Part shown: positions 2,868 through 63,763 of the stretch, piece after piece
How positions within the stretch are numbered: position 1 is the stretch's first letter
How the letters are laid out: each line of letters starts with the position of its first letter
Assembly (NCBI GenBank): GCA_039028635.1
Contig: JBCCHV010000004.1
Location: 89,385-153,384, forward strand
Reading direction: 5' to 3'
DNA length: 64,000 nucleotides
From: Acidobacteriota bacterium
GTDB lineage: Bacteria; Acidobacteriota; Thermoanaerobaculia; Multivoradales; JBCCEF01
The notes under the pieces: generated by a model
The model's input: only the letters and a program-made list of their open reading frames with translations
The model's database searches: none
Told to the model about the DNA's origin: nothing
Position numbers and translations under genes: made by a program

Positions 2868-3454
2868 TCCTCTTCTTCCGTTTCGGTGCTGTCTTCCGCG
2901 GCGTCCGGGGTCGCTGGCTCGGTGGGCGGTGGATCGCTGCGGTAGATCAACCACAGAAAGCCCGTCGGCGGTGCGCCTTCGAGGGCGCTCGGAGAGCGTA
3001 GCGGCGCCGCCAGCTCGAGACCCTCGCCCGGTTTCTCGGTCAGCTCGAGGGTTTCGAGCACCCAGCCATCGCGCGGGTCGAGGCGGCCGGTGGTGAGCAG
3101 CTTGCGGTCGCTGCCGGCGAGCACGGTGCCGTCCGCACCGAGGACGTGGAGGGCTTCGATGCCCGGTACCTCGAGGGCCGCCGACACGGCTTGGTCGAGA
3201 CCGCTACGATTCTTCGCCCGCGCCAGCGGCAGCACGCCCGAGGCGAGGGCCGCAAAGACCGCCCGGCCTTCCTTGCGCCCGGCCTCCGCCTGCAGCCGCT
3301 CCGCCTCCGTCTGAAAGGTCATCAGGCGCGAGTTCCAGCGATTGTCCTGTATCTCGAGCTCGGAAGTGCGCTGCCGCTCCTTGATCGTCCAGATTCCCCA
3401 GCCGGTCAGGAAAATCAGCGCCACGAGCAAAGCCTCGAAGGCGATCCTCTTCAT
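2864..3454 (-). CDS. hypothetical membrane-anchored protein
   Basis: 196 aa starting MKRIAFEALLVALIFLTGWGIW (N-terminal TM) with an acidic C-terminus (TETEEED). ATG at 3452-3454 confirmed on the reverse strand. Lies downstream of the PLP enzyme gene. Confidence 0.5.
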   Translation of the reverse strand: MKRIAFEALLVALIFLTGWGIWTIKERQRTSELEIQDNRWNSRLMTFQTEAERLQAEAGRKEGRAVFAALASGVLPLARAKNRSGLDQAVSAALEVPGIEALHVLGADGTVLAGSDRKLLTTGRLDPRDGWVLETLELTEKPGEGLELAAPLRSPSALEGAPPTGFLWLIYRSDPPPTEPATPDAAEDSTETEEED

Positions 3455-10169: not shown

Positions 10170-11002
10170 GGGGTCATCGGGCTCTGCTCCTGCTGGTCGC
10201 GCTGGCCGTTCTGTTCGGCTGCCCGATCGGTGGGCCGCAGCCGGCGCCGGACCTGGCGGCGCGCATCGACGACGAGGCGGTGCGCTATCGCGAGTTCGAG
10301 CTCTACCTCGAAGAGCTCCTCGGGGAATCCGGGAGCAGCCTCGAGAGCACCGTGCTGTCGCGCCTCTTCGATGGCTTCTTGGAGGAGCGGCTACTGGTCA
10401 AGCTGGCGGTCGACCGGGTGCTGGTGCCGCAAGGCGCGGCGCCGCGGCAGGCGGTCGAGCGACTGTTGGCGGAAGACCCGCCGCGCGTCCCCGGGGAGGA
10501 GGCCGTCGAGGCCTACTACCAGGCCCACCGCGAAGATTTCGTTCGCCCCGAGCGGGTGCGCTTGCGGCAGATCCTGGTCGCCGAGCGAGAAACGGCCGAG
10601 GAAGCCCTGCGACGCCTTGGTCGCGGTGAGGATTTCGGTGCCGTGGCGCAGGGCTTGTCGGGCGACCTCAATGCCTCCTCGGGCGGCTTCCAGGGGGAGC
10701 TGGCGCGGGATGAGCTGCCGCCCGCCTTTGCGGCTCCGATCTTCGCCCTCGAGCCGGGTGAGGTGAGCGCGATCATCGAGGCCGAGTACGGATTCCACCT
10801 CTTCCAGGTGGTGGCCCGGCTACCGGCCGAGGAGGTGTCGCAGGCCGCCGTGCGCAGCGAGATCGAGCGTCGCTTGCTGCAGGCCGCGACCGCAGAACGG
10901 GTCGCCCAATTGGCTGCAGAAGCGCGGAACCGATACACTCTGGAGGTCTTTGTCAGGAACCTCCCGTTCAACTACCAGAGCTCCTCGCGTGATGAATCGT
11001 AG
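10166..11002 (+). CDS. parvulin-type peptidyl-prolyl cis-trans isomerase, lipoprotein
   Basis: Lipobox LFGC after the signal peptide. Parvulin domain (FQGELARDELPPAFAAPIFALEPGEVSAIIEAEYGFHLFQV). The ATGA overlap with the mfd stop suggests translational coupling. Confidence 0.7.
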   Translation: MRGHRALLLLVALAVLFGCPIGGPQPAPDLAARIDDEAVRYREFELYLEELLGESGSSLESTVLSRLFDGFLEERLLVKLAVDRVLVPQGAAPRQAVERLLAEDPPRVPGEEAVEAYYQAHREDFVRPERVRLRQILVAERETAEEALRRLGRGEDFGAVAQGLSGDLNASSGGFQGELARDELPPAFAAPIFALEPGEVSAIIEAEYGFHLFQVVARLPAEEVSQAAVRSEIERRLLQAATAERVAQLAAEARNRYTLEVFVRNLPFNYQSSSRDES

Positions 11003-46997: not shown

Positions 46998-47122
46998 CGC
47001 CGTCTCTCGCTCCTACCAGTCGGTGAGGAGAGGGTCGAGGTTCACGGCGGCACCGGTCGAGAGTTGAGAGGGTTTATCGTATTGTCTGAGTAATATTTTA
47101 ATTGTTGTCGCCGGGAGGGAAG

Positions 47123-48292
47123 ATGGTGAGACGATCGCTGTGGAGCCTTGTCTTCATATGGATGGCCGTCGCTCCAGCCTGCGGAGCAGCCTTGTCATCG
47201 CAGGCTGACGATCCGAGGGCGGACGCTGTTGGCGAAGCAGTCGTCGCGGCTGCCGAACGTGCCGAGGTCGCTGCCGAACGAGCCGAACAGGCCGCGATGC
47301 GTGGGGACCGAGCTTCCAAGAAGGCCGACACGCTGGTGGGTGCGATGCAGGTCTTCGTGGCGGTGCTCGCTTTCATTCTGGTCGTAGCTGGTTCGATCGG
47401 ATTACTGGAGCTGCGAAATCTTCGCGAGGCTCGCCAACAGGCCGAAGCCCAAGTCGCCGAGATTCGGAAAATGCGGGACTCTCTGGGAGAGAGCTGGGCT
47501 CGCTTTGTGCGAGAGGCTCTCGAGCGACTGGAGGCGCTCGGGTCTTACATTGACGGAACCCATCCCGAGATGGAGCGTACCGACGAGTTCTTGGATGCCG
47601 ATCGCGTGGCCATTGTTGGTGATGCGCTCGGGCTCGCCAGGGATCCGAACACCCGATTCGACATCCTCTTTCGGCTGGGACGCCACTGGAAGAGTCAAGG
47701 ATTCTATGCCCGCGCCTTGCAGCGGTTCGAGCGGAGCCGGGAGTTGGCGGTAGACCTCAATGCCAGCAGTTGTGGAAAGGCCCGAGCCCTGAACTTCATG
47801 GCGCTGACGCTGATTGAATGGGCGGAGACGCTCAGCAAGCGATCGACCCAGCAGGTGACCGCCGGTCACGAGGACTCGTCACGCTCGGCGGGTGCGTCAC
47901 TACTTCAGGAGGCCGAAGGCATCTTGGTTCCGCTGCTTGGCGCGGGGGCCGAGGTCAGTGTCGAGACCCTTTTCGTTCAAGGCAAGCTGGAGTGGGCTCA
48001 GAGGCGACTGGACCAAGCCCTCGGCACTTATGCCGCAGTCATCGAACGGGCTCGCAACAGTGCAGATGAGGAGGAGAGAGCCGATGGCTACCGAGCGATC
48101 TACAACACGGCTTGCGCCCTCTGTGACCGCCGAAAGGAAGGAGACCTCTACCGTGCGATGGGCTTCCTGGAATCTCTTCCCAGGTCGGAAGGTTGGGCGC
48201 GATGGGCTGGAGAGGATGAAGACTTGCAGCCGCTGAGGGATGACCCGAACCTAGGGCCTCGGTTCGAGAGATTTACTTTTACCGAGAGGTAG
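47123..48292 (+). CDS. hypothetical protein (N-terminal signal/TM, helical repeats) in lower-GC segment
   Basis: Preceded by the AT-rich stretch TATCGTATTGTCTGAGTAATATTTTAATTGTTG and a GGGAGGGAAG RBS. No family was recognised. Confidence 0.5.
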   Translation: MVRRSLWSLVFIWMAVAPACGAALSSQADDPRADAVGEAVVAAAERAEVAAERAEQAAMRGDRASKKADTLVGAMQVFVAVLAFILVVAGSIGLLELRNLREARQQAEAQVAEIRKMRDSLGESWARFVREALERLEALGSYIDGTHPEMERTDEFLDADRVAIVGDALGLARDPNTRFDILFRLGRHWKSQGFYARALQRFERSRELAVDLNASSCGKARALNFMALTLIEWAETLSKRSTQQVTAGHEDSSRSAGASLLQEAEGILVPLLGAGAEVSVETLFVQGKLEWAQRRLDQALGTYAAVIERARNSADEEERADGYRAIYNTACALCDRRKEGDLYRAMGFLESLPRSEGWARWAGEDEDLQPLRDDPNLGPRFERFTFTER

Positions 48293-48550
48293 CTGGGCTG
48301 CTGGCGGTCGCTGGGGTTCAGGGCGAACCCAGAGCGAGTCGCTAGAACTTGGTGATGTCGTCGTTGGTCTTCATGATTCTCCGATCGTAGTGCCTAGTTG
48401 AAGAATTCTCAAGCTCATTCTCGACTGGCCCTCGAGAAGCCTCGACCATGAAAACGCGTTTCGGCGCCGAAAATTCCTGCACTGGGGGCGAGGGTTGGAG
48501 GAGGTCATGCCGTTGTTTCCAACGGCATGACTCGGGTCTCTCTTCGCCGA

Positions 48551-50599
48551 TCAGAGCAATCGAGCGTGGTAGATGCGGTGGTGGTCGTTGGCGTTGATCC
48601 AGAAGATCCTCACTTGCCCCCCGAGGTTGGCCAAAGCCGGTGCGCACGCCGCGTGGTGCGGGTCGCCGTTGATCGGAGCGGGCTGCGACCAGCTCTCGAA
48701 GGGAGAGGAAGAGCGACTGTAGAGGATGCGACTGCCATCGCCGCGCTCCTTCCAGGCAACGAAGACTTCGCCATTCAGCTCGGTGACCGCCGGTGAGAAG
48801 TCCGACGAAGCGCCCGGGATGGTCTTGGGTGCTTGCCAGGTCTGAGTATTCCAGCTCGTGTACCAGAGCTCCCGCGTCGCGCTTTTCGAGTTGCCGAAGA
48901 CCAGGAGCTGAGTTCCGACGGGGATCGCAGCCGGTGTTTTCTCGCTGGCATAGGCGTCACCGATTCGCTGAGGCGTTCCCCAGGAGATGCCGCCATCCTC
49001 GGAGGTCTTGTAGCAGAGGCGGCGCTTGTCCTCATCTTCCACCCACAGCAGGATGCGGCCGGTCTTGATGCCATAGAAGCGGCTGAGAGCCGGTGATTCG
49101 GGCGTGGCGTTGCCTTGAATCTCGGAGTGCTTGCTCCAGGTCCAGCCCTTCATCTGGCTCCAGGTTCCGCGAGCTCCGTAGATTTCCGGCTGGTTCCATT
49201 CGTACCCGCGCCAGACGAGCTGCAGGCCTTCATTGTCGCTGAGCTTGTCCGGGAGCGCCGCCGAGTAGAGGTAGGTCAGGTAGTTGCGCCAGTCGCCTCC
49301 GCCGACGATCTCGGGAGCCTTCCAGGTTTCGCCCTGGTGTCGGCTGCTGAAGTAGATGCCGCCGCGGGCGTGCTCCGCTGTCCACAAGACCATGGACTCG
49401 GGACTCGGGGGGTCGAGATTGGGAGTGCCGTGGAAGTCGAAGGCGACCGGGGTTTGACGCGATTTGGCGTTGGGGTGGAGGGCTCGCCCACGACTGAAGT
49501 CCCCCGACCACAAGCAGCCGGAGTGGGCGTTCACGTGCGCCGCGATGCGGCTGATGTTGGGAGCCAGGAAGATGCGCTTGGTGCCGAAGGATGGGCACAT
49601 GATGATGGCGTCGGGCCCTTGGCAGTGCTCGGTGCCGACGTGCAGGGCGCCGAAGTTGTGCCCCAGCTCGTGAGAGACCAGGGCGACCAAGCCGTTCTGG
49701 CTTCCGAAGGGCAGAGCGGAAAGACCATAGGTCGGTGTCTTGCACACCGTGCCGGTGTCGGCGATGCCGGCGATGTTGCCGTCGAGCTCCTTGCCGCTGA
49801 ACAGATGGGTGAGGGCCCGTTCGGCGGTGATCTGGCCGCCGTAGGCACGCAATTGCCCCAGTAGCGTCGTGTCCTTGGTCGACTTGTAGGGCTGTGCGCT
49901 CGCCGACTTGTGGACGGCGAGGTGGGTGACCACGAGGCGCAGTCCGTGATGGCTTTCGAAGACGGCGCTGACCTCGTTGAGGACGCCCAGAATCTTGGCG
50001 CTCCAGTTGCTCTGATTTCGATTCCAGAACTCGAAGTCGGCCTCGATCGCGATCGGCACCGTAAAGGTCGGATTCATCGCTTCTGTCGGAGGGGTGTTCG
50101 GGACCGGCGAGACTTCGGTCGGATTGCCGCAGCTCGGCTCCGTTGGGTTCGGTGAGGAGATGAGATCCGAATCCCGATACAGCACCAAAAGGCTGTCATC
50201 AAGGCTCTCGCTGAAGGAGGCCGCAGGCTCGAAGAAGGTCGTTTCCCCGGGAGTCGCGATTCGTCCTTGCAAGAAGCCCGGGGCGATGACCAGCTGGACG
50301 CTGCTCTCGGGCTGGTGGGTGAGGTGACCGCGGTAGATGCCGATGCGCTCGAGCTCGCGGGCGGTTTCCACCGAGTCGGCGAGGTCGCCGTCCCAGATCG
50401 CATGAGGCTCGAGGGTGAGCTCGAGCTCGCGGTCTGCGATGCGCAGGACGACCGGTTCTCCTGCCGACAGGGCTCGGCGGAGAGCATCGACCTGCAGGTG
50501 GAACAACGTGAAGTGGGCGAGGTGCGGGGCGAGCGCGTCGCGCAGAGCGGTGGTGGGTTCGACGATATCGGCGGTGACAGGTGTCTGGTTCGTTGTCAT
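48551..50599 (-). CDS. metzincin zinc metalloprotease (reprolysin/M12B-like) fused to BNR/Asp-box-containing C-terminal region
   Basis: HELGHNFGALH zinc site followed by the Met-turn AIIMCP. The C-terminus has Asp-box-like SEDGGISWGT and Trp-rich repeats. GGGAGGAAGAG RBS before the ATG at 50597-50599. No obvious signal peptide. Confidence 0.65.
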   Translation of the reverse strand: MTTNQTPVTADIVEPTTALRDALAPHLAHFTLFHLQVDALRRALSAGEPVVLRIADRELELTLEPHAIWDGDLADSVETARELERIGIYRGHLTHQPESSVQLVIAPGFLQGRIATPGETTFFEPAASFSESLDDSLLVLYRDSDLISSPNPTEPSCGNPTEVSPVPNTPPTEAMNPTFTVPIAIEADFEFWNRNQSNWSAKILGVLNEVSAVFESHHGLRLVVTHLAVHKSASAQPYKSTKDTTLLGQLRAYGGQITAERALTHLFSGKELDGNIAGIADTGTVCKTPTYGLSALPFGSQNGLVALVSHELGHNFGALHVGTEHCQGPDAIIMCPSFGTKRIFLAPNISRIAAHVNAHSGCLWSGDFSRGRALHPNAKSRQTPVAFDFHGTPNLDPPSPESMVLWTAEHARGGIYFSSRHQGETWKAPEIVGGGDWRNYLTYLYSAALPDKLSDNEGLQLVWRGYEWNQPEIYGARGTWSQMKGWTWSKHSEIQGNATPESPALSRFYGIKTGRILLWVEDEDKRRLCYKTSEDGGISWGTPQRIGDAYASEKTPAAIPVGTQLLVFGNSKSATRELWYTSWNTQTWQAPKTIPGASSDFSPAVTELNGEVFVAWKERGDGSRILYSRSSSPFESWSQPAPINGDPHHAACAPALANLGGQVRIFWINANDHHRIYHARLL

Positions 50600-50895
50600 C
50601 TCTTCCTCCCGGAAGGCTTGAGAAGAAGCGACCGCAGGGCGAATACACGCTGGCTGTTCGCCGATCGCAGGGACGCTGGGTCCGTAGCCGGTCGACGCTC
50701 GTTGGGGGAAACCTGCCCCGGATCGCAGATTGGAATCTGCACCGGGTGTGTTCTCGGCGGAGAAACGTTTCAGCAGCTCAGGAGTCGAGCTGCTAGGGCG
50801 GTCCGCCTGTGTCCTACGGGTTGCTGAAGGGGCCATCGGCCGGGGCATCCCTCGATGGAGGTCCCGGCGGCCTCGAGGGGTACCTGCCTCCGGCG

Positions 50896-51285
50896 CTACT
50901 CCCAGGCTTCGGCGCCCTGGACGACCCGCGACTGGATCTGGGCGATCCTTTCGGCATGGGCCTTGATCGACGTGGCGTGGGGGCCTTGCCAGCTCTGGTC
51001 AACGGTTTCCCGGAAGAGCTCGATCCAGCGCCCGAACTGCTCGGCGCGGAAGGGCATCTGCTGCGACAGGACCGAGTGCTTCTGGGTCGGCGAGCCGTGG
51101 AACCCTGGAATGCGCAGCTCGACGGCGCACCAGAAGGCAGTCAGCTTGGTGATGTGCTCGTCCCAGTCGACTCCCGCTTGGTCGACGAAGACGGGGCCGA
51201 GCAGATCGTCCCGCTGGACCCGCTCGTAGAAGGCGCGGACGAAGGTCTCGAGACGTTCGGGGCTGTCGAGATCCGGTCGTGACAT
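50896..51285 (-). CDS. truncated-hemoglobin-like (globin family) protein
   Basis: 129 aa. FYERVQRDDLLGPVF ... LTAFWCAVE ... GSPTQKHSVL ... FGRWIELF resembles group II/III truncated globins. Confidence 0.5.
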   Translation of the reverse strand: MSRPDLDSPERLETFVRAFYERVQRDDLLGPVFVDQAGVDWDEHITKLTAFWCAVELRIPGFHGSPTQKHSVLSQQMPFRAEQFGRWIELFRETVDQSWQGPHATSIKAHAERIAQIQSRVVQGAEAWE

Positions 51286-51298
51286 AGGGTCCTCGCGG

Positions 51299-51482
51299 CT
51301 AGCCCGGCCTTCTCACGAGGTTTCCTGGCGAGAGGCCGTAGGTTCTTGAAGATGCAAGGCATCCGTCGCTGCCACGACGCAGCCGTACTCGATGTACTGC
51401 GAGGAGAGCAGGCGACGGATAACGCAGCAGATTCTGGGACATACGGACGCGCAGCGGAAAGCTCGTGAGAAGGGCGGGCTAG
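51299..51482 (-). mobile_element. MITE-like inverted-repeat element, family B copy 1 (inverted relative to copies 2 and 3)
   Basis: CTAGCCCGGCCTTCTCACGAG ... CTCGTGAGAAGGGCGGGCTAG, a 20-21 bp TIR. About 90% identical to 53481-53663 and 57839-58027. The terminal CTAG supplies the stop of the small membrane ORF. It sits in the promoter of the globin gene. Confidence 0.6.
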
Positions 51483-51862
51483 CTGGAGAGGGATTCGATC
51501 ACGATCGCGACCAGGACGAAGAGGATCGTCAGCAGGCCGCAGCCGTTGATGCCGCCGCCGAGGAAGGCCATCAGCTTCGGTTCTCGGGATGCGGCTCGGA
51601 TGCCATAGGAGGTGCCGAAGCCGAAGGGAATCGCCGACCCGAAGAAGATCAGCAGCACCAGGCCGGCGAGAGGGCCGGCGATCGATCGGTTGTCCGACAG
51701 TATGGCGATTGCGAAGCCGCCGAAAACGCAAATCCCCAGCAGCACCACCCAGGTGATCGATCCCAACAGCATCGACTTGACGCCCAGCGGAGATTCGCCC
51801 CGGGCCGACGAGGGCGGATTCGGAGTTGCCCCCTCGGAAGGAGGATCTGGAGTATTGGTCAT
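51479..51862 (-). CDS. hypothetical small membrane protein
   Basis: 127 aa from MTNTPDPPSEG, with a Pro-rich N-terminus and three hydrophobic helices. The longer ORF extension is non-coding repeat sequence. Confidence 0.45.
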   Translation of the reverse strand: MTNTPDPPSEGATPNPPSSARGESPLGVKSMLLGSITWVVLLGICVFGGFAIAILSDNRSIAGPLAGLVLLIFFGSAIPFGFGTSYGIRAASREPKLMAFLGGGINGCGLLTILFVLVAIVIESLSS

Positions 51863-52167
51863 TCTTTGACCTCGACGACCTCTCGGTGGTTGGGGACCGG
51901 AGCGTTTAGTCCGGGCCTTGTTCTCAACTCTCTCATGGGAAGGCGCAGGCTTGAAGGTTCGGTGGCGGTCAATGCTAGAGTTCAAGGCGGCGGCCGCGCT
52001 GAGCGCCCAACTCCTGCAGGCCTCTCGCCCCGAGGCCTCTCGTCGGAGCAAAGGGGAGCCCGGACTTCTCCAGCGCCAAGTGTCTGACGATCTCTAGGTT
52101 TCAGACCATGAGCTCAGTGGAAGGGGGCGACTTCTGTTGTGCTCATGGGACCAGAGGATGAGATGTC

Positions 52168-53463
52168 ATGACACAGCAGTCAAGCTTCAAAGCTCGTGTG
52201 CGCGCTCGGATGTCTAAGACCGGAGAGCGCTACGCTGCAGCGCGCCTCGCCCTGCTCAAGAACGCCAGCTCCAACGCCGATTCTCCAGCCGCCGAAGCGG
52301 TACCGCCAGGGACCATTCTCACGGACCTCGGGGCCCTGGCGATGGCGCTCCAAGCCGCCGGTATCGTCGACCCTGCCACCGGGGCTCCGTTCTCCGAGAC
52401 TCGCCTCTTCGGACTCTCCGGTGGCCCTGGCTTCATGAGCTTTGTTTTTCAGTACCAGAACGTTGCTCCGATCCTGACCATCACCTGTCGGAGCTTTTCT
52501 CTTCCGGGGCCGGTCGTCGATCGGGCACTGGAGCATGCCGGGATCAACCCGGATCGCTTCGAGAGCGGGAGCACCAGCAAGAGCCGCCGAGCTCTCGACC
52601 AGGTTCTGGAGCAATCTCGCGTCGCCCATCTCGCCGTCGATCAAGCGCGATTGCCGTGGCTCGGGTTGGATCCGATCTGGCAGGGGCAGTGGCCGCGTCA
52701 CGTCAATGTCTCCAAGGTCGGCGACGCCTTTCGAGTTCAGGACCAGGCGCAGTGGACGCTCAGCGAGGAGCAGCTCGCGGCGGCTCGAGCCGGCATCAAA
52801 AAGGCCAAGCATCGAATGCTGTCCTTTGGTGACACCACGGTGGGCGATCCCGTGGCGGCGACGCGCCAAGCGCTCGAGTTCTACGTCAGCAATCAAAGAA
52901 CCGCACCCTACGCCAACTTCAAAAACAACTTCGGGCTCAAGGGCTTGGCCCGTACCGCCCAAGCGATGGGCGACCTGACCACCAAGAAGGGCTGGCTGCG
53001 AACCTTCGACAGCGGACCCTATGCCTTTGCTGCCCTTTGGCGCCTGTGGGAGTGTCTCACCGTGGAGCTGACGGCGCCGGCCGCTGGCCGGCCTCTGTTC
53101 GCGGACTTTCTCGAGCAGGCGAGCGAGCTTCCCGGCTGTCCCGATCTTCGATCGGCCGCTGAGCTGGCGCGGGCCAGCGGCGAGGCGTTCGAAGATCTGG
53201 TCGATCTCGCCGTGGCGGCCGGAGGCGGGCCGCTCGGCCAAGCCATCGAGTGGACCGAGGCCATCGACGAGGCACTGCGCTCCGGTGCTCCCGACACTCC
53301 CGAGACCGTTCGCGAGCTGCGCGCCCGTCGCGCTGCGCTGGCGGCGCAATGCACCCTCGACGAAGCGTCTCGTCGTGAAGTGTTCACCGCCCTTGCCGCT
53401 CAGATGAATCGGATCCTCGATCGCGAGACGGCTCTGGTCGAAGCGCTCGAGCGCAAGCCCTGA
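52168..53463 (+). CDS. hypothetical protein (possibly BtrH_N/DUF4872-like; unverified)
   Basis: 431 aa with good GC3 bias. The family assignment is only a weak recollection. Flanked by inverted family-B repeats. Confidence 0.45.
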   Translation: MTQQSSFKARVRARMSKTGERYAAARLALLKNASSNADSPAAEAVPPGTILTDLGALAMALQAAGIVDPATGAPFSETRLFGLSGGPGFMSFVFQYQNVAPILTITCRSFSLPGPVVDRALEHAGINPDRFESGSTSKSRRALDQVLEQSRVAHLAVDQARLPWLGLDPIWQGQWPRHVNVSKVGDAFRVQDQAQWTLSEEQLAAARAGIKKAKHRMLSFGDTTVGDPVAATRQALEFYVSNQRTAPYANFKNNFGLKGLARTAQAMGDLTTKKGWLRTFDSGPYAFAALWRLWECLTVELTAPAAGRPLFADFLEQASELPGCPDLRSAAELARASGEAFEDLVDLAVAAGGGPLGQAIEWTEAIDEALRSGAPDTPETVRELRARRAALAAQCTLDEASRREVFTALAAQMNRILDRETALVEALERKP

Positions 53464-53775: not shown

Positions 53776-54324
53776 TTAGTCGTCTGGTTGTCCGACGAGC
53801 AGGGCGGCGAATCCGGGGAAGAAGGCGAAGGCCCAATAGGCGGCGCGGAGAAGGTAGTTGACCGGCTCGGCGGAAGGGTTGGTCCAGATCCCGGAGATCG
53901 CCCAGAACGCCAGGCCCGAGAGGCCGGCGGCGATCGCCCCGCGGGTCAGGGCGCGGCCGCGGCTCTCGCGGCCACCCCGAGCTCGGCGCAGGAGCGTGGC
54001 GAGGGTCAGCCACATGGCGATCCAGGTGATCAGCAGGCCGCCGAGATAGCCCACGACCATCGCGATCGGATAGAAGGCGGCGGCAATCAGCAGGCCGCCG
54101 ATGGGCAGCGTCTTCAGCAGGCTGCGGGTCGCACCGGCGACTCCCGAGGCTCGGCCGAGGACCAGGGCGAGAATCAGGAAGATCAGGACGCCGTGAACGA
54201 TGCCGGGGACCACCGCACCGTCTGGGATGAAGCTCGCCCACAGCCAATCGCCGAAGGACGACACCACGCCGAGGATCAGCGCCGTGACCACTGCCCGAGC
54301 GATTCCTGGACCGAGAGCGCTCAT
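53776..54324 (-). CDS. hypothetical integral membrane protein
   Basis: 182 aa with 5-6 TM helices. Divergent from the kinase gene. Confidence 0.45.
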   Translation of the reverse strand: MSALGPGIARAVVTALILGVVSSFGDWLWASFIPDGAVVPGIVHGVLIFLILALVLGRASGVAGATRSLLKTLPIGGLLIAAAFYPIAMVVGYLGGLLITWIAMWLTLATLLRRARGGRESRGRALTRGAIAAGLSGLAFWAISGIWTNPSAEPVNYLLRAAYWAFAFFPGFAALLVGQPDD

Positions 54325-54558
54325 CGGTTCCTCTCCGTGTGGTCGAGGTCGAGGCAGGGATCAGGCAACCGCGATGGCCTCGGCTTCTACCTGCGGTCGA
54401 ATCTGCGGTCGCAGGCCGCTCTCGGTGACCAAGGCGAGGTGCTGGTGGAGGAGGTGAAGTGCTTCGTCGCTGTTCATCGCTCGAAGTCTATCGCCACCTC
54501 GGCATGCCCTCCCAGGAACGCTAAAACGCGCCATCTCGATGGTACCTTCGTCTCTACC

Positions 54559-57225
54559 GTGAGCTCCGAACCGACCCAGGACCTCGAACAGGAACGCCGA
54601 GTCTTCGCTCTACTCGCCGAGGTCGGCGAGTTGGGTCCGGAGGAGCGGGAGCGTGCTCTCGACGAGTGCGACGATCCGGCCTTGGCGACCGTTGTGCGTC
54701 GGATGCTCTCCGCCCACGGCTCGATCAGCGGCTTCCTCGACACGCCCGCACCGGCGGCTTTTCCGCCGACCTGGGTCGGCAAGTCGATCGGACCCTACGA
54801 GGTCCTCGAGCTGCTCGGCGAAGGCGGCATGGGGATGGTCTTCCGTGCCGCCCAGACCGAGCCGGTGCAGCGCGAAGTGGCGCTCAAGATCTTGCGCCTG
54901 ACCCGGCTCAGTCAAGAGGTGAAGGTTCGCTTTGAGGCCGAACGGCAAGCGATGGCCCGCCTCGACCATCCCAACATCGGTCGCATCCTCGAAGCCGGCA
55001 CGACCGAGAACGGGCTGCCCTACTTCGCGATGGAGTTGATCGATGGGGACAAGATCACCACTTACTGCGATCAGGCCGAGCTGCCCATCGAGGAGCGTCT
55101 GCGGCTCTTCCGCGACGTTTGCCGAGGCACCCACCACGCTCACCTGAAGCTGCTGCTCCACCGCGACATCAAGCCGTCCAATGTTTTGGTGACGGAGTTC
55201 GATGGCAGGCCGATTCCGAAGCTGATCGACTTCGGCATCGCCAAAGGGCTGGACGAGCCACTGGCCGCCGCCACCATGGCGACCGGCGACCGCTTCCTCG
55301 GGACACCGGCCTACATGAGTCCGGAAGCCCTCGAGTCCGGCCGCGACGTCGACGCACGCTCGGACGTCTTCGGCCTCGGCGTTCTGCTTTACCGGCTGCT
55401 CACCGGAACTCTGCCGTGGCCGGCTCCGGAGAACGATCCGCTGCAGATGATGAAGCAGCGGTTGGAGCGCGACGCCGACCGTCCGTCGACCCAAATCACC
55501 AGCCTCGAATCCGATCGCCGTGCCCAGATCGCGAGCCGGCGCAGCCTCGATCCACAGAAGCTGGCGCAGAAGCTGCGCGGCGATCTCGACAGCATCGTGA
55601 TGAAGGCGATCGAGCAGGACCCCGGTCGGCGCTACGCTTCGGCCGCCGAGCTGGCCGATGACATCGAGCGCCACCTGGCCGACGAGCCGATCCGTGCCCG
55701 CCCGCTCACCGGGCGGCTGCTGCTCAGCAAGCTGGTGCGTCGACACCGCACCGTGGTGGTCGCCGCCGTTGCGGTTCTGCTGGCCCTGGTCCTCGGCGCG
55801 GTCGGCACCGTCGCCGGTCTGCTTCAGGCCCGCGAGGCGGAGCGCAGGGCCGTCGCCGAGGCCGAGGCGGCGGTCGACGCCCGCGACCAAGCCGACGAGG
55901 TCTCCCGATTCCTGGTCGGGCTCTTCCGGCGGTCGAGCACCCATTCGCCGAACGCCGACAAAGCACCCGGCGAAACGACCGCCCTCGAGCTGGTTGCCCG
56001 TGGTGCCGAGCTGAGTGAGAAGGACCTCCAGAATCGCCCGGTGGTGCGCGCCCGGATCGCTCACGAGGTGGGCAAGATCTACAAGAACCTGGGAGAGTTT
56101 GACCAAGCGCGCAGCTCTTTCCGGTCGAGCATCGCCACGCAGGAGACCCTCGACCCTCGCCCCTTGACCCTCATCGCGGGCAACTACCTCGAGCTGGCTC
56201 AGATCGAGCACCGGCTCGCCAACTGGACCGAATCGAAAGAGCTGCTGGACCAGACCCTCGCTCTCGTCGCGGATTTGACTTCCTCGCCGGCCATTTCGCT
56301 GCGCGGCAACGCACTGAACCTGCTGAGCCGCCTGCGCCGTGCCGAGGGTGACTACGAAGGCGCCGAACAGGCGATCCAGGAAGCGATCCGGATTTACGAG
56401 CTGCAGGACGACGGAGGCCGAGACATCGCCTGGGGGCGGGCGACCCTGGGCACCGTCTACTTCTCCCGGCAACGCTGGGCCGACGCTGAGAATCAGTGGC
56501 GGCAGGCGATCGAGCTGCTCGAGCCGGTGCTCGACCAGGGAAATCCGATCCTCACCCAGCTCTACAACAACCTGGGCGCCGCCATCGCCAGCCAAGACCG
56601 CCTCGAGGACGCCGCACCGATGTTCGAACGGGCGGAGCACCACCAGCGCGCCCGCCTCGGTGACGAGCATCACGAGCTGGCCGATACGCTGAACAACCTG
56701 GGGGTTTTGAATCAACAGCTCGAGCGCCTCGAGCGCGCCGAGGCCATCCACCGCAAGGCGCTCGCGATCCGCGAACGGGCCCTCGGTGCCGACCACCCGA
56801 AGACCGCCTGGAGTCTCGACAACCTGGCCCGCACGGTCGAAGATCTGGGACGCCCCGACGAGGCCCGCTCGCTGCAAGAGCGCGCCCTGAAGATTCGCGA
56901 GAAGAAGCTGGGCGCGGAGCATCTCGACCTTGCCCGCAGCCTCGGCCACCTTTCCCGGCTGCTGGTGCTGGACGGCGAGCACCGCCTGGCCGTCCGCTAC
57001 GCCGACCGCGCCTATCGCATCCGGGTCACCCAGCTCGACCCGGGCCATCGCGAGATCGGCTTGAGCGCCGTCGATCTCGGCGCAGCCCTTTGGCACCTGG
57101 AGCGGCGCGACGAGGCGCGGCAACGGTTCGAGGAAGCGAGCAAGCTCTTTGCAGCCGGAGGCGAGTCGATGCAAGACGAAATCGCAGAGACGAAGGAGCG
57201 ACTCGCCGCGCTCGGTATTTCTTGA
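54559..57225 (+). CDS. Ser/Thr protein kinase with C-terminal TPR repeats
   Basis: Hanks kinase motifs GEGGMGMVF, VALK, HRDIKPSNVLV, DFGIAK and GTPAYMSPE. A TM helix follows the kinase domain, then about 450 aa of TPR_10/12-type repeats. The start (GTG 54559) is uncertain. Confidence 0.8.
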   Translation: MSSEPTQDLEQERRVFALLAEVGELGPEERERALDECDDPALATVVRRMLSAHGSISGFLDTPAPAAFPPTWVGKSIGPYEVLELLGEGGMGMVFRAAQTEPVQREVALKILRLTRLSQEVKVRFEAERQAMARLDHPNIGRILEAGTTENGLPYFAMELIDGDKITTYCDQAELPIEERLRLFRDVCRGTHHAHLKLLLHRDIKPSNVLVTEFDGRPIPKLIDFGIAKGLDEPLAAATMATGDRFLGTPAYMSPEALESGRDVDARSDVFGLGVLLYRLLTGTLPWPAPENDPLQMMKQRLERDADRPSTQITSLESDRRAQIASRRSLDPQKLAQKLRGDLDSIVMKAIEQDPGRRYASAAELADDIERHLADEPIRARPLTGRLLLSKLVRRHRTVVVAAVAVLLALVLGAVGTVAGLLQAREAERRAVAEAEAAVDARDQADEVSRFLVGLFRRSSTHSPNADKAPGETTALELVARGAELSEKDLQNRPVVRARIAHEVGKIYKNLGEFDQARSSFRSSIATQETLDPRPLTLIAGNYLELAQIEHRLANWTESKELLDQTLALVADLTSSPAISLRGNALNLLSRLRRAEGDYEGAEQAIQEAIRIYELQDDGGRDIAWGRATLGTVYFSRQRWADAENQWRQAIELLEPVLDQGNPILTQLYNNLGAAIASQDRLEDAAPMFERAEHHQRARLGDEHHELADTLNNLGVLNQQLERLERAEAIHRKALAIRERALGADHPKTAWSLDNLARTVEDLGRPDEARSLQERALKIREKKLGAEHLDLARSLGHLSRLLVLDGEHRLAVRYADRAYRIRVTQLDPGHREIGLSAVDLGAALWHLERRDEARQRFEEASKLFAAGGESMQDEIAETKERLAALGIS

Positions 57226-57247
57226 TCGCTGCTATTCTCGCCGCTCG

Positions 57248-57841
57248 ATGGCTGACGAAACTCCCGATCTACCGGAGGTTACCGAGCTGCTCTCGCGCTG
57301 GCGGGTCGGTGAAGAAACCGATCTCGAGGCCATGGTCCCGCAGATCTACGACGAGCTGCGCAGCCTGGCCAATCGCTACATTCGGCGCGGCGGCTCTGCC
57401 CAGACACTGCAACCCACGGAGCTGGTGAACGAGGCCTTCGTGCGACTGATGGGCTCGACGGTGAGCACCAATGATCGTCTGCATTTCCTGGCCCTCACTG
57501 CCCGCGTCATGCGCAGCGTCCTGGTCGACCGTTTCCGCCGGCGCGACGCGGCGAAGCGCGGCAGCAATCCGACGCCGGTGACGCTGGCTTCCAGCTTCGC
57601 CGAGCGGCAGCAGAGCTCGATCGACCTCCTCGATCTCCACCGCGCTCTGGAGCGCTTCGGCTCGGTCTCGCCACGAGCCGCGCAGATCGTCGAGCTGCGC
57701 TTCTTCGCCGGCTTGACCAATGAGGAAGTCGCAGAAGTCCTGGGGGTCTCGCTGGCCACCGTGGCTCGGGAATGGCGGGCCGCCCGGGTTTGGCTGGCCA
57801 ACGCCCTCGAGACGCCGCCGGGAGCGTCGTTACGACAGTAG
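57248..57841 (+). CDS. ECF-type sigma factor, TIGR02999-like (kinase-associated subgroup)
   Basis: N-terminal VTELLSRWRVGEETDLEAMVPQIYDELRSLANRYIRR...TLQPTELVNEAFVRL is diagnostic of the Sig-70_X6 family. Region 4 IVELRFFAGLTNEEVAEVLGVSLATVAREW. Lies 23 nt downstream of the kinase. Confidence 0.8.
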   Translation: MADETPDLPEVTELLSRWRVGEETDLEAMVPQIYDELRSLANRYIRRGGSAQTLQPTELVNEAFVRLMGSTVSTNDRLHFLALTARVMRSVLVDRFRRRDAAKRGSNPTPVTLASSFAERQQSSIDLLDLHRALERFGSVSPRAAQIVELRFFAGLTNEEVAEVLGVSLATVAREWRAARVWLANALETPPGASLRQ

Positions 57842-59437: not shown

Positions 59438-59827
59438 CTACCAGGCCTCGACTTGAAGAGATTCGACCTGAGCGAAGTGGCGATCACGAGTCGCCAGGAT
59501 CAGATCGTGTTGCCGGGCACAGGCTGCAATCCAGATATCGTTCTCAGGAATCGGCCGCCCCTGCTGTTGGAGATGCGCCTTAAGCGTCCCGTACTGCTGA
59601 GCAGTCGCGATGTCCTGTGGCATCACCGGACAGACCTCTACCAGCCCTTCGATCCGGCGACGGTTGGCCTCGGGACGAGCTGACTTCGCAGCCCCAAAGA
59701 GCAATTCACCGACGACCATGAGGCAGAGAAAAGACTTGATCCCGAGACCGCGGCGGGCTTCAAGATCAACGTCCTGATTGAGCACACGTATGGCGACGTT
59801 GGTATCGAGCAGGTACCTACCACTCAT
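59438..59827 (-). CDS. vapC: type II toxin VapC (PIN-domain ribonuclease)
   Basis: 129 aa starting MSGRYLLDTNVAIRVLN. PIN acidic residues (D at LLDTN, E in GELLFGA, D in ILATRD). Confidence 0.75.
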   Translation of the reverse strand: MSGRYLLDTNVAIRVLNQDVDLEARRGLGIKSFLCLMVVGELLFGAAKSARPEANRRRIEGLVEVCPVMPQDIATAQQYGTLKAHLQQQGRPIPENDIWIAACARQHDLILATRDRHFAQVESLQVEAW

Positions 59828-60068
59828 CGGCGTCGACCCGCCACCCATCCGCGTCAACCTGCTCGCATCCCTCTTCGATTGCTTCCATCATCTCGCGCGC
59901 CGATTTGTCGTCAAGAGTGCCGGCAACCTTCATCAGATCCTCGACCGAGGCTCCCTGAAGGCTGGACCTGGCCAGATCGTGGACCAGCGCGGCGGCCCGC
60001 TCCTGTTGCTTGGGCGAGAGCCGGTCCAGGTCACTAAGAATCTGCTCCTTGATCGTTGGTACCACCAT
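59817..60068 (-). CDS. type II antitoxin (VapB-like) of VapC
   Basis: 83-aa acidic protein. The 11-nt overlap with the vapC start is the classic TA operon layout. Confidence 0.55.
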   Translation of the reverse strand: MVVPTIKEQILSDLDRLSPKQQERAAALVHDLARSSLQGASVEDLMKVAGTLDDKSAREMMEAIEEGCEQVDADGWRVDADEW

Positions 60069-60432
60069 AGTGCCACCTCCTTTGCGCTCCGGTGCGCGGT
60101 CCGATTCTATCCGGCAGCCTAAGGAGGCGGTGAGATCGCCCCTGCCTCTTCGGCAAGAGCCAGGAGATACCTCATAGCGACCTCCCTACCGTTGGCCTCG
60201 GTGGTATCCGATTGAAGAGGTGCCCCAACGACCCGCCTTCCTATGCTCGGTGGACCGAGTTGGAGTTGGCAGGTCGGGCGGTCCTGTAGGATGTCCGCAA
60301 TACATCTTGAGCGAATTCTTGAAATCATGCTCTGGCTTCCACCTCTGGGCAGGAAATTCTAGCTTGGACACTTCTCCTTGGTTGCTTTGGGGAGGCTTGG
60401 GCAGCACACGGCCAACGAAGAGGAGGCAGACA

Positions 60433-61695
60433 TTGGCAAGGCGGGGATTCTTTGCAGAGATTAGCCACCAAGTGCGACAGGCGGAAAAGGCAAGAGCAAG
60501 GGCGGAGCGAGAGGAGGAGCGAGCTAGGAAGGCGGCTATCCGTGATCTTGAAAGAGCCCGGAAGAAGTCCGAGCGCCTTAGGCAGCAAGCTGTAAGAGCC
60601 CACGCTGCTGAGAAGAAGAGGCTCGAAAAAGAGGCTCGTGCTGCTCACTTCGCCGCTAGACAAGCCGAGGTCGACAAGCAGAACAGCGAGCTTGAGCAGC
60701 AGTTCCAAGAGATTGAATCCCTATTAGCAGCCACGCTTGATGTAGATGATTATGTAGACTTGGACTCTCTCCGGAAGAAGGCCGAGCACCCGGCGTTTGG
60801 CCACCCGGATCTTGAGGTACCCATCCAGCCACCCGAACCACCTTCTGAGTCGCCAGAGCCAGTGTTCATTGAACCAAGGGCACCGAAGGGGCTTGCGGCG
60901 CTTTTTGGCCGGAAGAAGGCAGCGAGAGCGGTTGCGGCAGCCAATGAAGCTCATGTGGAAGCCGTCACTGCCTGGCGCTCCAAAGTAGAAGAGCTCAAAG
61001 CCCTTCACAAGGCTGAGTTGAGGGGCGCCGCAGAGCGCGAGGAGAAGCGATTAGAGCGGCTCAAGGCTGAGAGAGGGAAGTATGAGAAAGAGTGCGCCGA
61101 GCGTGAAAAGGCCGTTGCCGAACACAACTCTAGGCTAGATACCTTCATAACCAATCTTGGCTACGGAACTGCCGAAGCGATTCAAGAGTACGTGTCCATC
61201 GTGCTGGCGAACTCTGTCTACCCTCCGGTATTTCCTGTCGATCACGACTTTGACTTCGACCCAAATAGCGCCGAGCTCCGGTTGCGGGTTGTCGTTCCGC
61301 CCCCCGAAGCAATGCCGACCGTCAAGGCCTACCGATACGTCAAATCCAAAGACGAAATCATGGCAACGTCCCTTTCCCAGAAAGCGTCCAAAGAGAGGTA
61401 CGAAAGTGCCATCCATCAAGTGGCGCTTCGGTCGGTGCATGAGGTGTTCGAAGCCGACCGCCGGGGGCTCATTAGGACCATCTCCATGGAACTGGGCACA
61501 GAGACTGTCAGACCAGCAACGGGGCGGATGGACTACTTCCCATTCGTCGCCTTGGCAACTGACCGAGATCAGTTCCTTGAGCTGAACCTATCGGCCGTCG
61601 TGCCAACCGCCAGCCTTGAGCATCTTGGTGCGGTGATATCCAAGAATCCCTTTGGGCTAGTTACGGTTGATGCATCAGGGGTCCGTCAGGCATGA
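60433..61695 (+). CDS. hypothetical coiled-coil protein (component A of candidate two-gene defence module)
   Basis: TTG start 6 nt after a GAGGAGG RBS. About 200 aa of Lys/Arg/Glu-rich coiled coil (AEKARARAEREEERARKAAIRDLERARKK...), then a roughly 200-aa globular C-terminal domain (VDHDFDFD ... YESAIHQVALRSVHEVF). No P-loop. About 58% GC. Confidence 0.55.
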   Translation: MARRGFFAEISHQVRQAEKARARAEREEERARKAAIRDLERARKKSERLRQQAVRAHAAEKKRLEKEARAAHFAARQAEVDKQNSELEQQFQEIESLLAATLDVDDYVDLDSLRKKAEHPAFGHPDLEVPIQPPEPPSESPEPVFIEPRAPKGLAALFGRKKAARAVAAANEAHVEAVTAWRSKVEELKALHKAELRGAAEREEKRLERLKAERGKYEKECAEREKAVAEHNSRLDTFITNLGYGTAEAIQEYVSIVLANSVYPPVFPVDHDFDFDPNSAELRLRVVVPPPEAMPTVKAYRYVKSKDEIMATSLSQKASKERYESAIHQVALRSVHEVFEADRRGLIRTISMELGTETVRPATGRMDYFPFVALATDRDQFLELNLSAVVPTASLEHLGAVISKNPFGLVTVDASGVRQA

Positions 61696-63044
61696 CCGAT
61701 GACTCGGCTATCTTCAATCCCCCTCCTGGCTGGCCAAAACCGCCAGAGGGCTGGAAGCCGCCACCTGGCTGGTCACCGGACCCCGCCTGGCCTGCGCCGC
61801 CCGAGGGCTGGGAACTGTGGCTTCCGGCAACTGCCGAGGACGGGAAGCAAGATGAGGCTGAGTCGACTTCTCCTGCCAAGTTGCCCAGGGGGAACTCGGA
61901 AGCGAGACAGGCCGACAGCGCTTCGGTGGACCGGGTCGCACAGCTCGAAGCGGAGAACGCGGCACTACGCGCACGCCTAGACTCTGATCCTCTAGAGGAC
62001 GATGCCATCACCCTGAGCGACGAGGCGGTGCTCCAAGAGGTGGGCATCTACCAATACCACCACCCGCTGGAAAGCGCGGTTGCTTACAAGGAAACCCTGA
62101 AGAAGCTGTCGAGTCGAATCGCAGATCAAGTGCGCTTCAGAAGCGCGATCGAGGTCTCGAGCCGATTCACCTTCAACAACTCGCTCGCGCAGGGGCGCAG
62201 GCTGTCCTCGAACCTCTCTCGACTGATGCTTCGCGCTTACAACGCTGAGGTAGACAATTGTCTTCGCTCGCTGAGAGCTGGAAACGTAGTTACCGCGAAG
62301 AAGAGAGTCGAGGCTTCTCGCAGGGCGATCAGAAAGCTCGGCAGCATTATGGAGATGCAGATTAGCCCCGGGTACCACGCGCTACGACTTGAGGAGATCG
62401 AGCTCACAGCGGACTACCTGATCAAGAAGAAGGAAGAGAGGCTCGCGGCCCGAGAGGAGCGGGCCCGCCTCCGGGAGGAACGACGGGTCGAGGCCGAGTT
62501 GGCGGCGGAGCGCGAGCGGCTAGAGAAAGAACGCAGCCACCTCCTGAACGCCCTGGCAACTCTTCGGGCGGGCGGCTCTTCGGATGAGGACCTGGAGAGC
62601 AAACTAAGCGAAGTCGAGGTGGCGATTGAGCACAATGACTACCGGGCGGCCAACATCCGAGCAGGCTACGTGTATGTCATATCTAATCGTGGCTCTTTTG
62701 GGAGAGGAGTCGTCAAGATAGGGCTTACTCGCCGCCTGCAGCCGCTAGTGCGCGTTTCCGAGCTTAGCGGGGCCTCGGTGCCTTTTCGGTTTGATGTGCA
62801 TGGACTCTTCTTCTCAGAGGATGCAGTCTCCCTCGAGGCCGAATTGCACGAGGAATTTGCGCCGCGCCGTGTGAACCTCGCGAATAGCCGTAAGGAATTT
62901 TTCTTTGCGAGCCCGTCGGAGGTCCAAGAGGCCTTGGTGTCGAAAGTTGGAAGCTTGCTGGAATTCAAAGAGGAGGCTGAGGCGACCGAGTACTGGCAAA
63001 GCCTGCACCACTGGCCAGAGGACCACAGAAGCCGCAATCAATAG
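61692..63044 (+). CDS. DUF4041 + T5orf172 (GIY-YIG-like nuclease) domain protein (component B)
   Basis: ATGA overlap with gene A. N-terminal PxGW tandem repeats. DUF4041-like helical region with RLAAREERARLREERR. C-terminal T5orf172/MUG113 motif GYVYVISNRGSFGRGVVKIGLTRR...R..EL....PF.FDVH..F.SEDA..LE..LH..F...RVN......EFFFASP. Confidence 0.65.
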   Translation: MTDDSAIFNPPPGWPKPPEGWKPPPGWSPDPAWPAPPEGWELWLPATAEDGKQDEAESTSPAKLPRGNSEARQADSASVDRVAQLEAENAALRARLDSDPLEDDAITLSDEAVLQEVGIYQYHHPLESAVAYKETLKKLSSRIADQVRFRSAIEVSSRFTFNNSLAQGRRLSSNLSRLMLRAYNAEVDNCLRSLRAGNVVTAKKRVEASRRAIRKLGSIMEMQISPGYHALRLEEIELTADYLIKKKEERLAAREERARLREERRVEAELAAERERLEKERSHLLNALATLRAGGSSDEDLESKLSEVEVAIEHNDYRAANIRAGYVYVISNRGSFGRGVVKIGLTRRLQPLVRVSELSGASVPFRFDVHGLFFSEDAVSLEAELHEEFAPRRVNLANSRKEFFFASPSEVQEALVSKVGSLLEFKEEAEATEYWQSLHHWPEDHRSRNQ

Positions 63045-63248
63045 GTTCGGAAGAGCGATGAGAACCTCGCCGTAGCTAGGGAGGGGTGTAGCGCTGCGCT
63101 CGACGCTCATGCTTTAGGTGCCGGCGTAGTCACAGTTCCACCCTCCTCCCTGACTCTTCAGCCTCAACTTGAATCAGCAGGGCTGGCTGCCTGGTCCGAT
63201 GAGCCAGAGGTTTGCCCCGGTTCTCGAAAGCCCACTGGTCCAGCGATC

Positions 63249-63616
63249 GTGCCTCTCCCGTCACCGGTGATCTCCTTCCTTGCTGACCTTCGCAAAGAGC
63301 GTCGCTCCGAGGTCTGGGTCGTCGCCAACAAGGCCGGGAATCGAGAAAGACACCTCCTCGAGATTTTCAAGATCGTCTGCCGGCGAGCCAAGATCACCCC
63401 TCAGGCAGCGATGCTTTATGCGCTCCGTCGTTCCTTCGGGACCCACCTGCGAGGGCAGGGGTTCGCCTGGCTGACATCGCTGGTCTCAGGGGGCAAAGCG
63501 ACCTGGCAACCACCAAGATCTACGCTAGCCTACCTCCCTCCGATTTCGGCGGCGCTGTTACGCAAAATGACGCCGTTGGTGGGTGGCTCTGGCGAGCCGT
63601 CACACAAACCTGCTGA
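63249..63616 (+). pseudogene. tyrosine recombinase/integrase remnant (C-terminal catalytic part only, frameshifted)
   Basis: One frame gives the R...HxxR box (LYALRRSFGTHLRGQG). The conserved LATTKIYASLPPS tail with the catalytic Tyr is in a different frame, so there is a frameshift near 63470. The N-terminal two thirds are absent. Confidence 0.5.
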
Positions 63617-63689
63617 AGAGAGCGAGTCGACTCGCTTGATCGAGCCTAAACCATCGCTAATAAGAGGCTTGGAGAGTGGTATCGAGAAG

Positions 63690-63763
63690 TGGCTGGGACG
63701 CAGGGAGTCGAACCCCGATTCTACGGTCCAGAGCCGCATGTCTTGCCATTAGACGACGTCCCA
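63690..63763 (-). tRNA. tRNA-Gln (anticodon CUG)
   Basis: Reverse complement: TGGGACGTCGTCTAATGGCAAGACATGCGGCTCTGGACCGTAGAATCGGGGTTCGACTCCCTGCGTCCCAGCCA. 7-bp acceptor stem, GTCT/AGAC D stem, anticodon loop CTCTGGA, T-loop TTCGACT, encoded CCA. Confidence 0.8.

Follow-up and report, generated by a model that had tools for sequence, protein, structure and literature searches.

A SNIPE-family nuclease without a membrane anchor and its overlapping partner gene: a probable two-gene anti-phage cassette in an Acidobacteriota genome

We analyzed a 64,000-nucleotide (nt) stretch of DNA from an Acidobacteriota bacterium (GenBank assembly GCA_039028635.1, contig JBCCHV010000004.1, positions 89,385 to 153,384 of the forward strand). 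This whole stretch is called the window, and all positions are counted from its first letter. Two overlapping plus-strand genes in the window, here named A and B, are our subject, and we read them as a probable two-gene anti-phage cassette built around a nuclease of the SNIPE family. Gene A (60433..61695) is an open reading frame (ORF) with a TTG start that encodes a partner protein of 420 amino acids (aa). The longest ORF in this frame opens earlier, with a GTG at 60220; we take the TTG at 60433 as the start because a Shine-Dalgarno sequence, GAGGAGG (60420..60426, read off the sequence), lies six bases before it and because homologues start at the same residue (M-A-R-R-G-F-F). Residues 3-244 (60439..61164) form an antiparallel coiled-coil hairpin, delimited by modeled secondary structure and conservation. 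They are followed by a conserved alpha/beta domain, the A-domain (residues 245-420, 61165..61692), delimited by the same model and by fold and profile searches. Gene B (61692..63044) encodes a 450-aa SNIPE/PD-lambda-1 family nuclease without a transmembrane segment, recognized through PADLOC, Pfam and phrog_1847. Its Pro/Trp-rich motif, FNPPPGWPKPPEGWKPPPGWSPDPAWPAPPEGWELW (residues 8-43, 61713..61820), stands out by conservation among A-linked homologues, while Pfam places a DUF4041 core (PF13250) at residues 177-232 (62220..62387) and a T5orf172/MUG113 nuclease domain of the GIY-YIG superfamily at residues 325-415 (62664..62936).

The start codon of B lies on the stop codon of A in an ATGA overlap (61692..61695), which implies that translation of the two genes is probably coupled. 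Since each has thousands of homologues, A and B are real genes and not chance ORFs. An initial annotation of this DNA, made from its letters and ORFs, had already described two such genes in one coupled operon, and much of its reading of the locus holds. The ORFs lie where it placed them, and the motifs it quoted are present: VDHDFDFD at A269, YESAIHQVALRSVHEVF at A323, GYVYVISN at B325, KIGLTRR at B342 and EFFFA at B402. Its statement that neither protein has a P-loop agrees with a motif check of both, in which no Walker A motif was found in A or B. The pair is also lower in GC than its surroundings, as proposed (0.585 across A-B vs 0.675 across window positions 1-59000).

Gene B is almost certainly a member of the SNIPE/PD-lambda-1 family. 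It matches the PADLOC PD-Lambda-1 profile PDLC03976 nearly end to end (E=1.4e-96; B residues 62-440 on profile positions 84-472 of 491), a second PD-Lambda-1 profile, PDLC03977 (E=3.7e-87), and phrog_1847 (4e-100). The DUF4041 match (E=4.9e-19) spans profile positions 1-56 of 56, and PF13250 is named 'SNIPE' in a newer Pfam release; the C-terminal matches to T5orf172 (1.6e-14) and MUG113 (3.5e-13) complete the domain composition that had been proposed for B. The GIY-YIG residues, whose conservation had been raised as a point to check, are intact: across 52 homologues there is no variation at G325, Y326, Y328, K342-IGLT-R347-R348, E382 or N398. B is accordingly best described, from its DUF4041 and T5orf172 domains, as a predicted nuclease of the GIY-YIG superfamily with its catalytic residues in place. 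For B, these matches overturn the initial statement that no named system fits the pair. The family of B is already known and has been studied mechanistically, and hence A-B is no categorically new system. What appears to be undescribed is the obligate two-gene form, the PPGW-type N-terminus of B that is tied to that form, and the A module itself.

PD-lambda-1 came from a functional selection in Escherichia coli (Vassallo et al. 2022; PMC9519451) and was renamed SNIPE by Saxton et al. (2026, Nature; PMC13190303), the source for the biology given here. According to that study, E. coli SNIPE is held at the inner membrane through a transmembrane helix at its N-terminus, it uses its DUF4041 region to bind DNA as well as the phage tape measure protein, and its GIY-YIG nuclease is shown experimentally to cut phage DNA during injection, in a defense against siphoviruses (PMC13190303). 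The E414A substitution abolishes defense, and SNIPE without its transmembrane helix is toxic and cleaves host DNA. The system is presented as a new self/non-self principle, in which a nuclease is safe when it is membrane-anchored where phage DNA enters. Since this is described as a direct defense that cuts incoming phage DNA, the term abortive infection in the initial annotation does not fit the family. A transmembrane helix is lacking in 34% of SNIPE homologues, which are proposed to reach the membrane otherwise; DivIVA-like or PH-domain N-termini are proposed as tethers in some of these, and DUF2510-type Pro/Trp N-termini are listed among them. The N-termini are the least conserved region of the family, and the control of its anchor-less homologues, a third of the total, is left open by the authors (PMC13190303).

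B has the same domain order as SNIPE, a helical DUF4041 region followed by a long helix and a C-terminal GIY-YIG/T5orf172 nuclease, and it keeps the catalytic glutamate. Residue E382 aligns with E414 of a 500-aa, transmembrane-bearing SNIPE-like E. coli plasmid protein, a copy that served for comparison and may differ from the published clone. That protein has a strong transmembrane helix at residues 6-24. Its gene (1951-3453 of pSTEC1018_2, a lambda-like phage-plasmid) stands alone beside the replication genes ren, P and O. Three differences set B apart. E. coli SNIPE discriminates self from non-self through its transmembrane anchor, whereas B has no hydrophobic segment (maximum KD19 hydropathy 0.61, vs 3.37 in the 500-aa E. 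coli homologue) and carries an invariant PPGW peptide instead. B thus counts among the 34% of SNIPE homologues for which no transmembrane helix is predicted. The missing anchor excludes the E. coli mechanism as described, not membership in the SNIPE family. SNIPE N-termini, moreover, are the least conserved region as published (PMC13190303), whereas the N-terminal peptide of A-linked B is the most conserved part of the protein. Finally, SNIPE is described as a single gene, whereas B comes with an apparently translationally coupled 420-aa partner. A partner gene for SNIPE is not mentioned in the passages and searched terms of PMC13190303 and its supplementary table, and neither a two-gene SNIPE nor the A module turned up in a full-text literature search.

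The partner protein has over 1,500 homologues with a uniform length of ~420 aa and no Pfam or NCBIfam family match. An AlphaFold (AF2) model based on a 58-sequence alignment reached a predicted local distance difference test score (pLDDT) of 91. In this model, helices 3-95 and 160-244 pack as a hairpin, and residues 245-420 form the alpha/beta domain. The tip region between the two helices (96-159) is conserved and proline-rich and holds a TLDVDDYVDL motif. The N-terminus, MARRGFF, is conserved, basic and aromatic, and the A-domain carries the motifs SVYP, KxYxYxKxxDEI, RY...ALRxxHExFEADRR and PATG. No transmembrane segment was found in A (maximum KD19 hydropathy 1.22). The first description of A, a protein of about 420 aa with a coiled coil and then a globular domain, is therefore right in outline, but its suggestion of a PD-(D/E)xK or other nuclease-related fold for the C-terminal domain is rejected as unsupported. 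The best Foldseek match had E=9.8e-3, and lambda exonuclease and Rai1, considered as folds of the A-domain, came out at E about 1-3 with probability <0.1. Mrr_cat has no Pfam match in A and reached 0.7% probability when aligned with the A-domain by hhalign, and an A-domain profile gave 0 matches at E<=10 against PDB sequences.

Existing labels for A nevertheless point to restriction. A matches the PADLOC mREase_IV profile PDLC03663 (2.1e-34), covering only profile positions 16-379 of 544, and the JGI label on its homologues is 'restriction system protein'. Both labels are explained by the fact that the module seen in A also forms the N-terminal part of Mrr_cat fusion proteins. A is the nuclease-less form of this coiled-coil and A-domain module.

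A and B very probably act as one functional unit. Scanning genome contigs with A alone gave one locus (Blastococcus), and a metagenome scan with an alignment gave 80. A B homologue with 57-73% identity to B lies directly downstream of A, on the same strand, in 56 of the 56 A-seeded loci that have at least 1,400 nt of downstream sequence, and in 13 of the 14 with only 300-1,400 nt after A. Co-occurrence, which the initial annotation had singled out for checking, is thus the rule among loci that carry A. In 51 of 55 related loci the two genes still overlap by the 4 nt ATGA. When the search was seeded with B, an A-like gene was found upstream in genomes of Bacteroidia and Thermoleophilia as well as on a plasmid of Kocuria rosea. 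Even relatives of A that are only 35-36% identical in the C-terminal domain still have a SNIPE gene next downstream, and the full-length, nuclease-less A of ~420 aa is followed by a SNIPE gene wherever the contig is long enough. Pairwise distances of A and B co-vary (Mantel r=0.913), a value reached by 0 of 2,000 permutations.

No third gene recurs beside A-B in 36 loci, so the cassette consists of exactly two genes inserted into varied contexts. Elsewhere these contexts include varied defense genes, in line with the expectation of a defense setting. PADLOC matches in ORFs flanking A-B cassettes comprise Shedu, Mokosh, Dsr1, PbeA, Type I, II and IV restriction-modification and PDC families, each family coming from one single flanking ORF, and DUF262/HEPN genes lie near A-B on the Kocuria plasmid. 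On predicted viral contigs a single A-B pair was found (L094 from IMG/VR, 7950-10476), and its A frame is broken: A appears there as two tblastn pieces in different frames, with an ORF that stops after 258 aa. It may be a decaying copy or reflect a sequencing error.

The pairing is specific to one kind of SNIPE N-terminus. Most SNIPE homologues come without A: among 199 plasmid records with a SNIPE homologue, full-length A occurs in one (Kocuria). Within the ~2.5-3 kb checked upstream of the 80 best viral-contig SNIPE homologues (36-53% identity to B), no A-like gene was found, and the PPGW motif is absent from 50 distinct A-less homologues on viral contigs. Every A-linked B, the two distant pairs included, carries the N-terminal pattern FNPPPGWPxPPxGWxPPxGWxPDPxWPxPPxGWxxW, with F8, N9, P12, G13, W14, W21, W27, W33, W40 and W43 invariant. 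Mean pairwise identity within B is 0.815 in this peptide, 0.79 in the nuclease domain and 0.15 in the adjoining linker. The conserved peptide is a candidate A-docking or localization peptide. Its identification with Pfam DUF2510 is rejected, since no match appears even at E<=10.

Other SNIPE homologues begin differently. N-termini of the A-less viral-contig homologues consist of a transmembrane helix or of a short motif followed by a coiled coil. Many prophage-borne homologues without a transmembrane helix (L108-L187) open with MGLFDxFK, MSLFGxKEK or MFGKKxK and then a coiled coil, and such starts may be another anchoring or targeting device. On a Curtobacterium plasmid (L092, NZ_CP126261.1, 3389-5089), a short 360-aa DUF4041/SNIPE gene has a separate 181-aa DUF2510 protein upstream, which bears the motif PAGWYDD...RYWDGQGW and a coiled coil; another DUF2510 gene comes after the SNIPE gene. 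This arrangement represents a split N-terminus or else another two-gene form of SNIPE.

The A module also occurs well outside SNIPE loci. A search of the C-terminal domain of A against 1.84 billion cluster representatives found it in 1,555 representative clusters (50% identity), many of them A-like proteins of ~420 aa. In nine of 20 longer proteins tested, the A-domain lies directly N-terminal to Mrr_cat (P0329, P0351, P0364, P0367, P0371, P0376, P0377, P0383 and P0387), and eight prophage-encoded proteins of ~540 aa have the full module plus Mrr_cat arrangement with an M-G-R-R-x-G-F start. These resemble the coiled-coil Mrr-type 'restriction endonuclease' proteins (~510-590 aa; PDLC03663; the name is that given by PGAP), which share with A an M-[AG]-RR-x-GF N-terminus, a hairpin with a TLxxDDxxD tip and the A-domain. 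Unlike A, they have their own C-terminal Mrr_cat nuclease of the PD-(D/E)xK type, and the gene of the single example examined stands alone; in the case of A, the nuclease is supplied in trans by a GIY-YIG protein of SNIPE type. A literature search found no experimental study of these ~510-590-aa proteins.

Further fusion partners of the A-domain are TerD, TerB_N together with TerB_C and, in two cases, a NACHT or AAA_16 NTPase. Fusions to these partners were noted among P0355, P0363, P0366, P0367, P0373, P0384, P0280 and P0252. By their predicted domain content, they link the undescribed domain to conflict systems of the Ter and STAND types. Two unusual proteins also came up: P0298 (684 aa) contains two complete tandem copies of the coiled-coil and A-domain module, and P0338 (1429 aa), in which a small portion of the A-domain (query residues 78-136) is matched 18 separate times, looks like an odd repeat protein.

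A non-catalytic module found with Mrr_cat, a SNIPE nuclease and TerB/TerD as effectors resembles systems that join a sensor or regulator to swappable effectors, such as Lamassu, where LmuB occurs with varied LmuA, and STAND/Avs. The resemblance to LmuB does not extend to kinship. A matches LmuB weakly (2.9e-6, A residues 39-272, the coiled coil only) and, unlike LmuB, lacks both an SMC/Rad50 ATPase head and a Walker A motif, so membership of A among Lamassu LmuB or SMC-like proteins is not supported. As a tentative and rather speculative extension, the coiled-coil and A-domain module could be a widespread control module coupled to interchangeable effectors: in trans to a SNIPE nuclease, in cis to Mrr_cat, and also to TerB/TerD and to STAND NTPases; in A-B, A would then hold the anchor-less nuclease through the PPGW peptide until a phage cue arrives, independently of the membrane. 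If this is true, A defines a new family of defense regulators and is more than an accessory of one system.

Our proposal for the locus itself can be put as follows. A and B would be made from the same mRNA by translational coupling. A would bind B, most plausibly through the PPGW peptide, which B carries on a hypervariable, flexible linker; co-occurrence and conservation suggest this contact. A would act as a regulatory, sensing or targeting subunit and replace the control that the membrane anchor gives in E. coli SNIPE. To keep the nuclease off host DNA, A would either restrain it until a phage cue comes or position it at the site of phage DNA entry, or do both, and B would then cleave the invading phage DNA. 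The need for such control follows from the finding that E. coli SNIPE without its transmembrane helix is toxic and cuts host DNA (PMC13190303), together with the lack of a transmembrane segment in both A and B. The division of labor first suggested for the pair, with A sensing or regulating and B as the nuclease effector, is still the most plausible one, given that the A module is fused to other effectors. We consider an anti-phage role of A-B likely. That the pair is a self-contained, horizontally mobile two-gene cassette, a two-subunit variant of anchor-less SNIPE, is probable at a more modest level of confidence, and for a specific regulatory or docking role of A the chances are about even.

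Other explanations account for parts of the same evidence. Current annotation would make the locus two independent neighboring single-gene systems, in which A is a restriction enzyme of Type IV (Mrr-like) and B is a PD-lambda-1/SNIPE acting on its own: PADLOC calls them mREase_IV (2.1e-34) and PD-Lambda-1, and JGI names homologues of A 'restriction system protein'. SNIPE does work as a single gene in E. coli, and the E. coli SNIPE-like gene stands alone beside lambda ren with no A-like neighbor. However, A lacks the nuclease part of the mREase_IV profile (16-379 of 544) and has no Mrr_cat match (hhalign 0.7%). Adjacency in 56/56 loci, the ATGA overlap in 51/55 and the co-divergence of the two proteins (r=0.91) tie the genes together, and a full-length ~420-aa A was never seen without a downstream SNIPE gene on long-enough contigs. 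Independence of the two genes is thus very improbable. A toxin-antitoxin or addiction module is a closer competitor, although still unlikely. Here B would be a DNA-cleaving toxin and A a sequestering antitoxin, with persistence through post-segregational killing or a function in abortive infection. This explanation partly overlaps with the one we prefer, since an inhibitory A belongs to both, and the toxicity of B alone would be expected by analogy with E. coli SNIPE lacking its transmembrane helix. A is nevertheless large (420 aa), highly conserved and structured (pLDDT 91), unlike a small labile antitoxin; Mrr_cat nucleases carry its module in covalent fusion, which is not an antitoxin-like design; and B keeps the DUF4041 region, which in SNIPE, a direct defense, targets the tape measure protein and DNA. 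These features have to be set against an upstream gene that is apparently translationally coupled to a downstream nuclease, the toxicity of anchor-less SNIPE to E. coli (PMC13190303), and a cassette that moves across phyla, is found on a plasmid and here neighbors another toxin-antitoxin module.

Alternatively, A could be a pure localization adaptor that replaces the transmembrane helix and tethers B to the envelope or the phage injection site, with no sensing or inhibition. The A module is fused elsewhere to TerB/TerD domains, which belong to envelope-associated stress and phage-inhibition systems, and the conserved, basic and aromatic MARRGFF N-terminus of A would also suit such a role. So would the dependence of SNIPE on membrane localization and the proposal that homologues without a transmembrane helix get there otherwise (PMC13190303). 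By comparison, A itself has no transmembrane segment (KD19 maximum 1.22, in a check that covered transmembrane segments and not amphipathic membrane-binding helices), no structural match to a membrane-binding domain rose above generic coiled-coil noise, and membrane targeting would have no known rationale for the Mrr_cat nucleases to which this module is also fused. We regard a purely localizing A as improbable, to about the same degree as the addiction module.

Several points also weigh against our preferred reading of A-B as a two-subunit, anchor-less SNIPE cassette controlled by A. The binding of A to B and the role of the PPGW peptide are suggested by co-occurrence and conservation only. 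The A-domain has no relative of known function, and the designation of A as a sensor or regulator rests on domain architecture. In the two STAND fusions, to NACHT and AAA_16, the A-domain sits at the C-terminal end and no further effector domain was seen, so it could serve as an effector or adaptor and not as a sensor. Most A-seeded loci are 49-59% identical to A, which points to one successful cassette and not to many independent associations. A called gene that fuses an N-terminally truncated A to a SNIPE body without the PPGW segment (P0260) is a hint at most, as it comes from a single 2.5-kb contig and its A is truncated. Finally, the surroundings of A-B in the window are weak as a defense island, consisting of a PIN gene with its presumed antitoxin and an integrase that is not confirmed.

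The preferred reading would matter in three ways. It offers a testable answer for one large, cross-phylum clade of anchor-less SNIPE, in which a partner protein and a docking-like peptide replace the anchor. Beyond SNIPE, the A module is the uncharacterized N-terminal part of many proteins called 'restriction endonuclease' or 'Type IV', and what it senses or binds would help to explain those proteins too. Annotation pipelines, for their part, will at present wrongly call A a Type IV restriction enzyme and treat B as a single-gene system complete in itself.

The remaining features of the window provide context. A PIN-domain (VapC-like) toxin gene (59438-59857, minus strand; PIN E=6.7e-16) and an overlapping 83-aa ORF (59817-60068, minus strand; no Pfam match), the presumed antitoxin, sit divergently upstream of gene A. 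On the other side, ARAGORN places a tRNA-Gln with a CTG anticodon (63690..63763, minus strand) 646 nt downstream of B. The initial annotation had bracketed the island with a toxin-antitoxin module, a decayed integrase and this tRNA. The first and last of these are present, but the plus-strand ORF at 63249-63752, which overlaps the tRNA, has no Pfam match even at E<=10, and no att-like repeat of the tRNA-Gln region occurs elsewhere in the window. A promoter and terminator scan of 60000-63400 returned nothing beyond chance. Farther upstream lie genes for M23 and reprolysin-like peptidases, an ECF sigma factor and an amine oxidase, none of them defense-related. Because these genes are ordinary and the integrase is not confirmed, the local island comprises just the PIN gene with its presumed antitoxin and A-B beside the tRNA.

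Two further observations concern this upstream region. A second lower-GC stretch lies at 47000-52500 (GC 0.60-0.65). Its genes include one for a reprolysin-like M12B metallopeptidase (48551-50848, minus strand), which also has a weak BNR match, and one for a DUF4872/BtrH_N protein (52168-53463). A large protein encoded at 53788-57225 shows in its translation a Ser/Thr-kinase-like motif, HRDIKPSNVL...DFGIAK, and a long repeat-rich C-terminus. Directly after it comes the ECF sigma factor gene (57149-57841; Sigma70_ECF, 7.6e-44), and the two may form a kinase/sigma-factor signaling pair.

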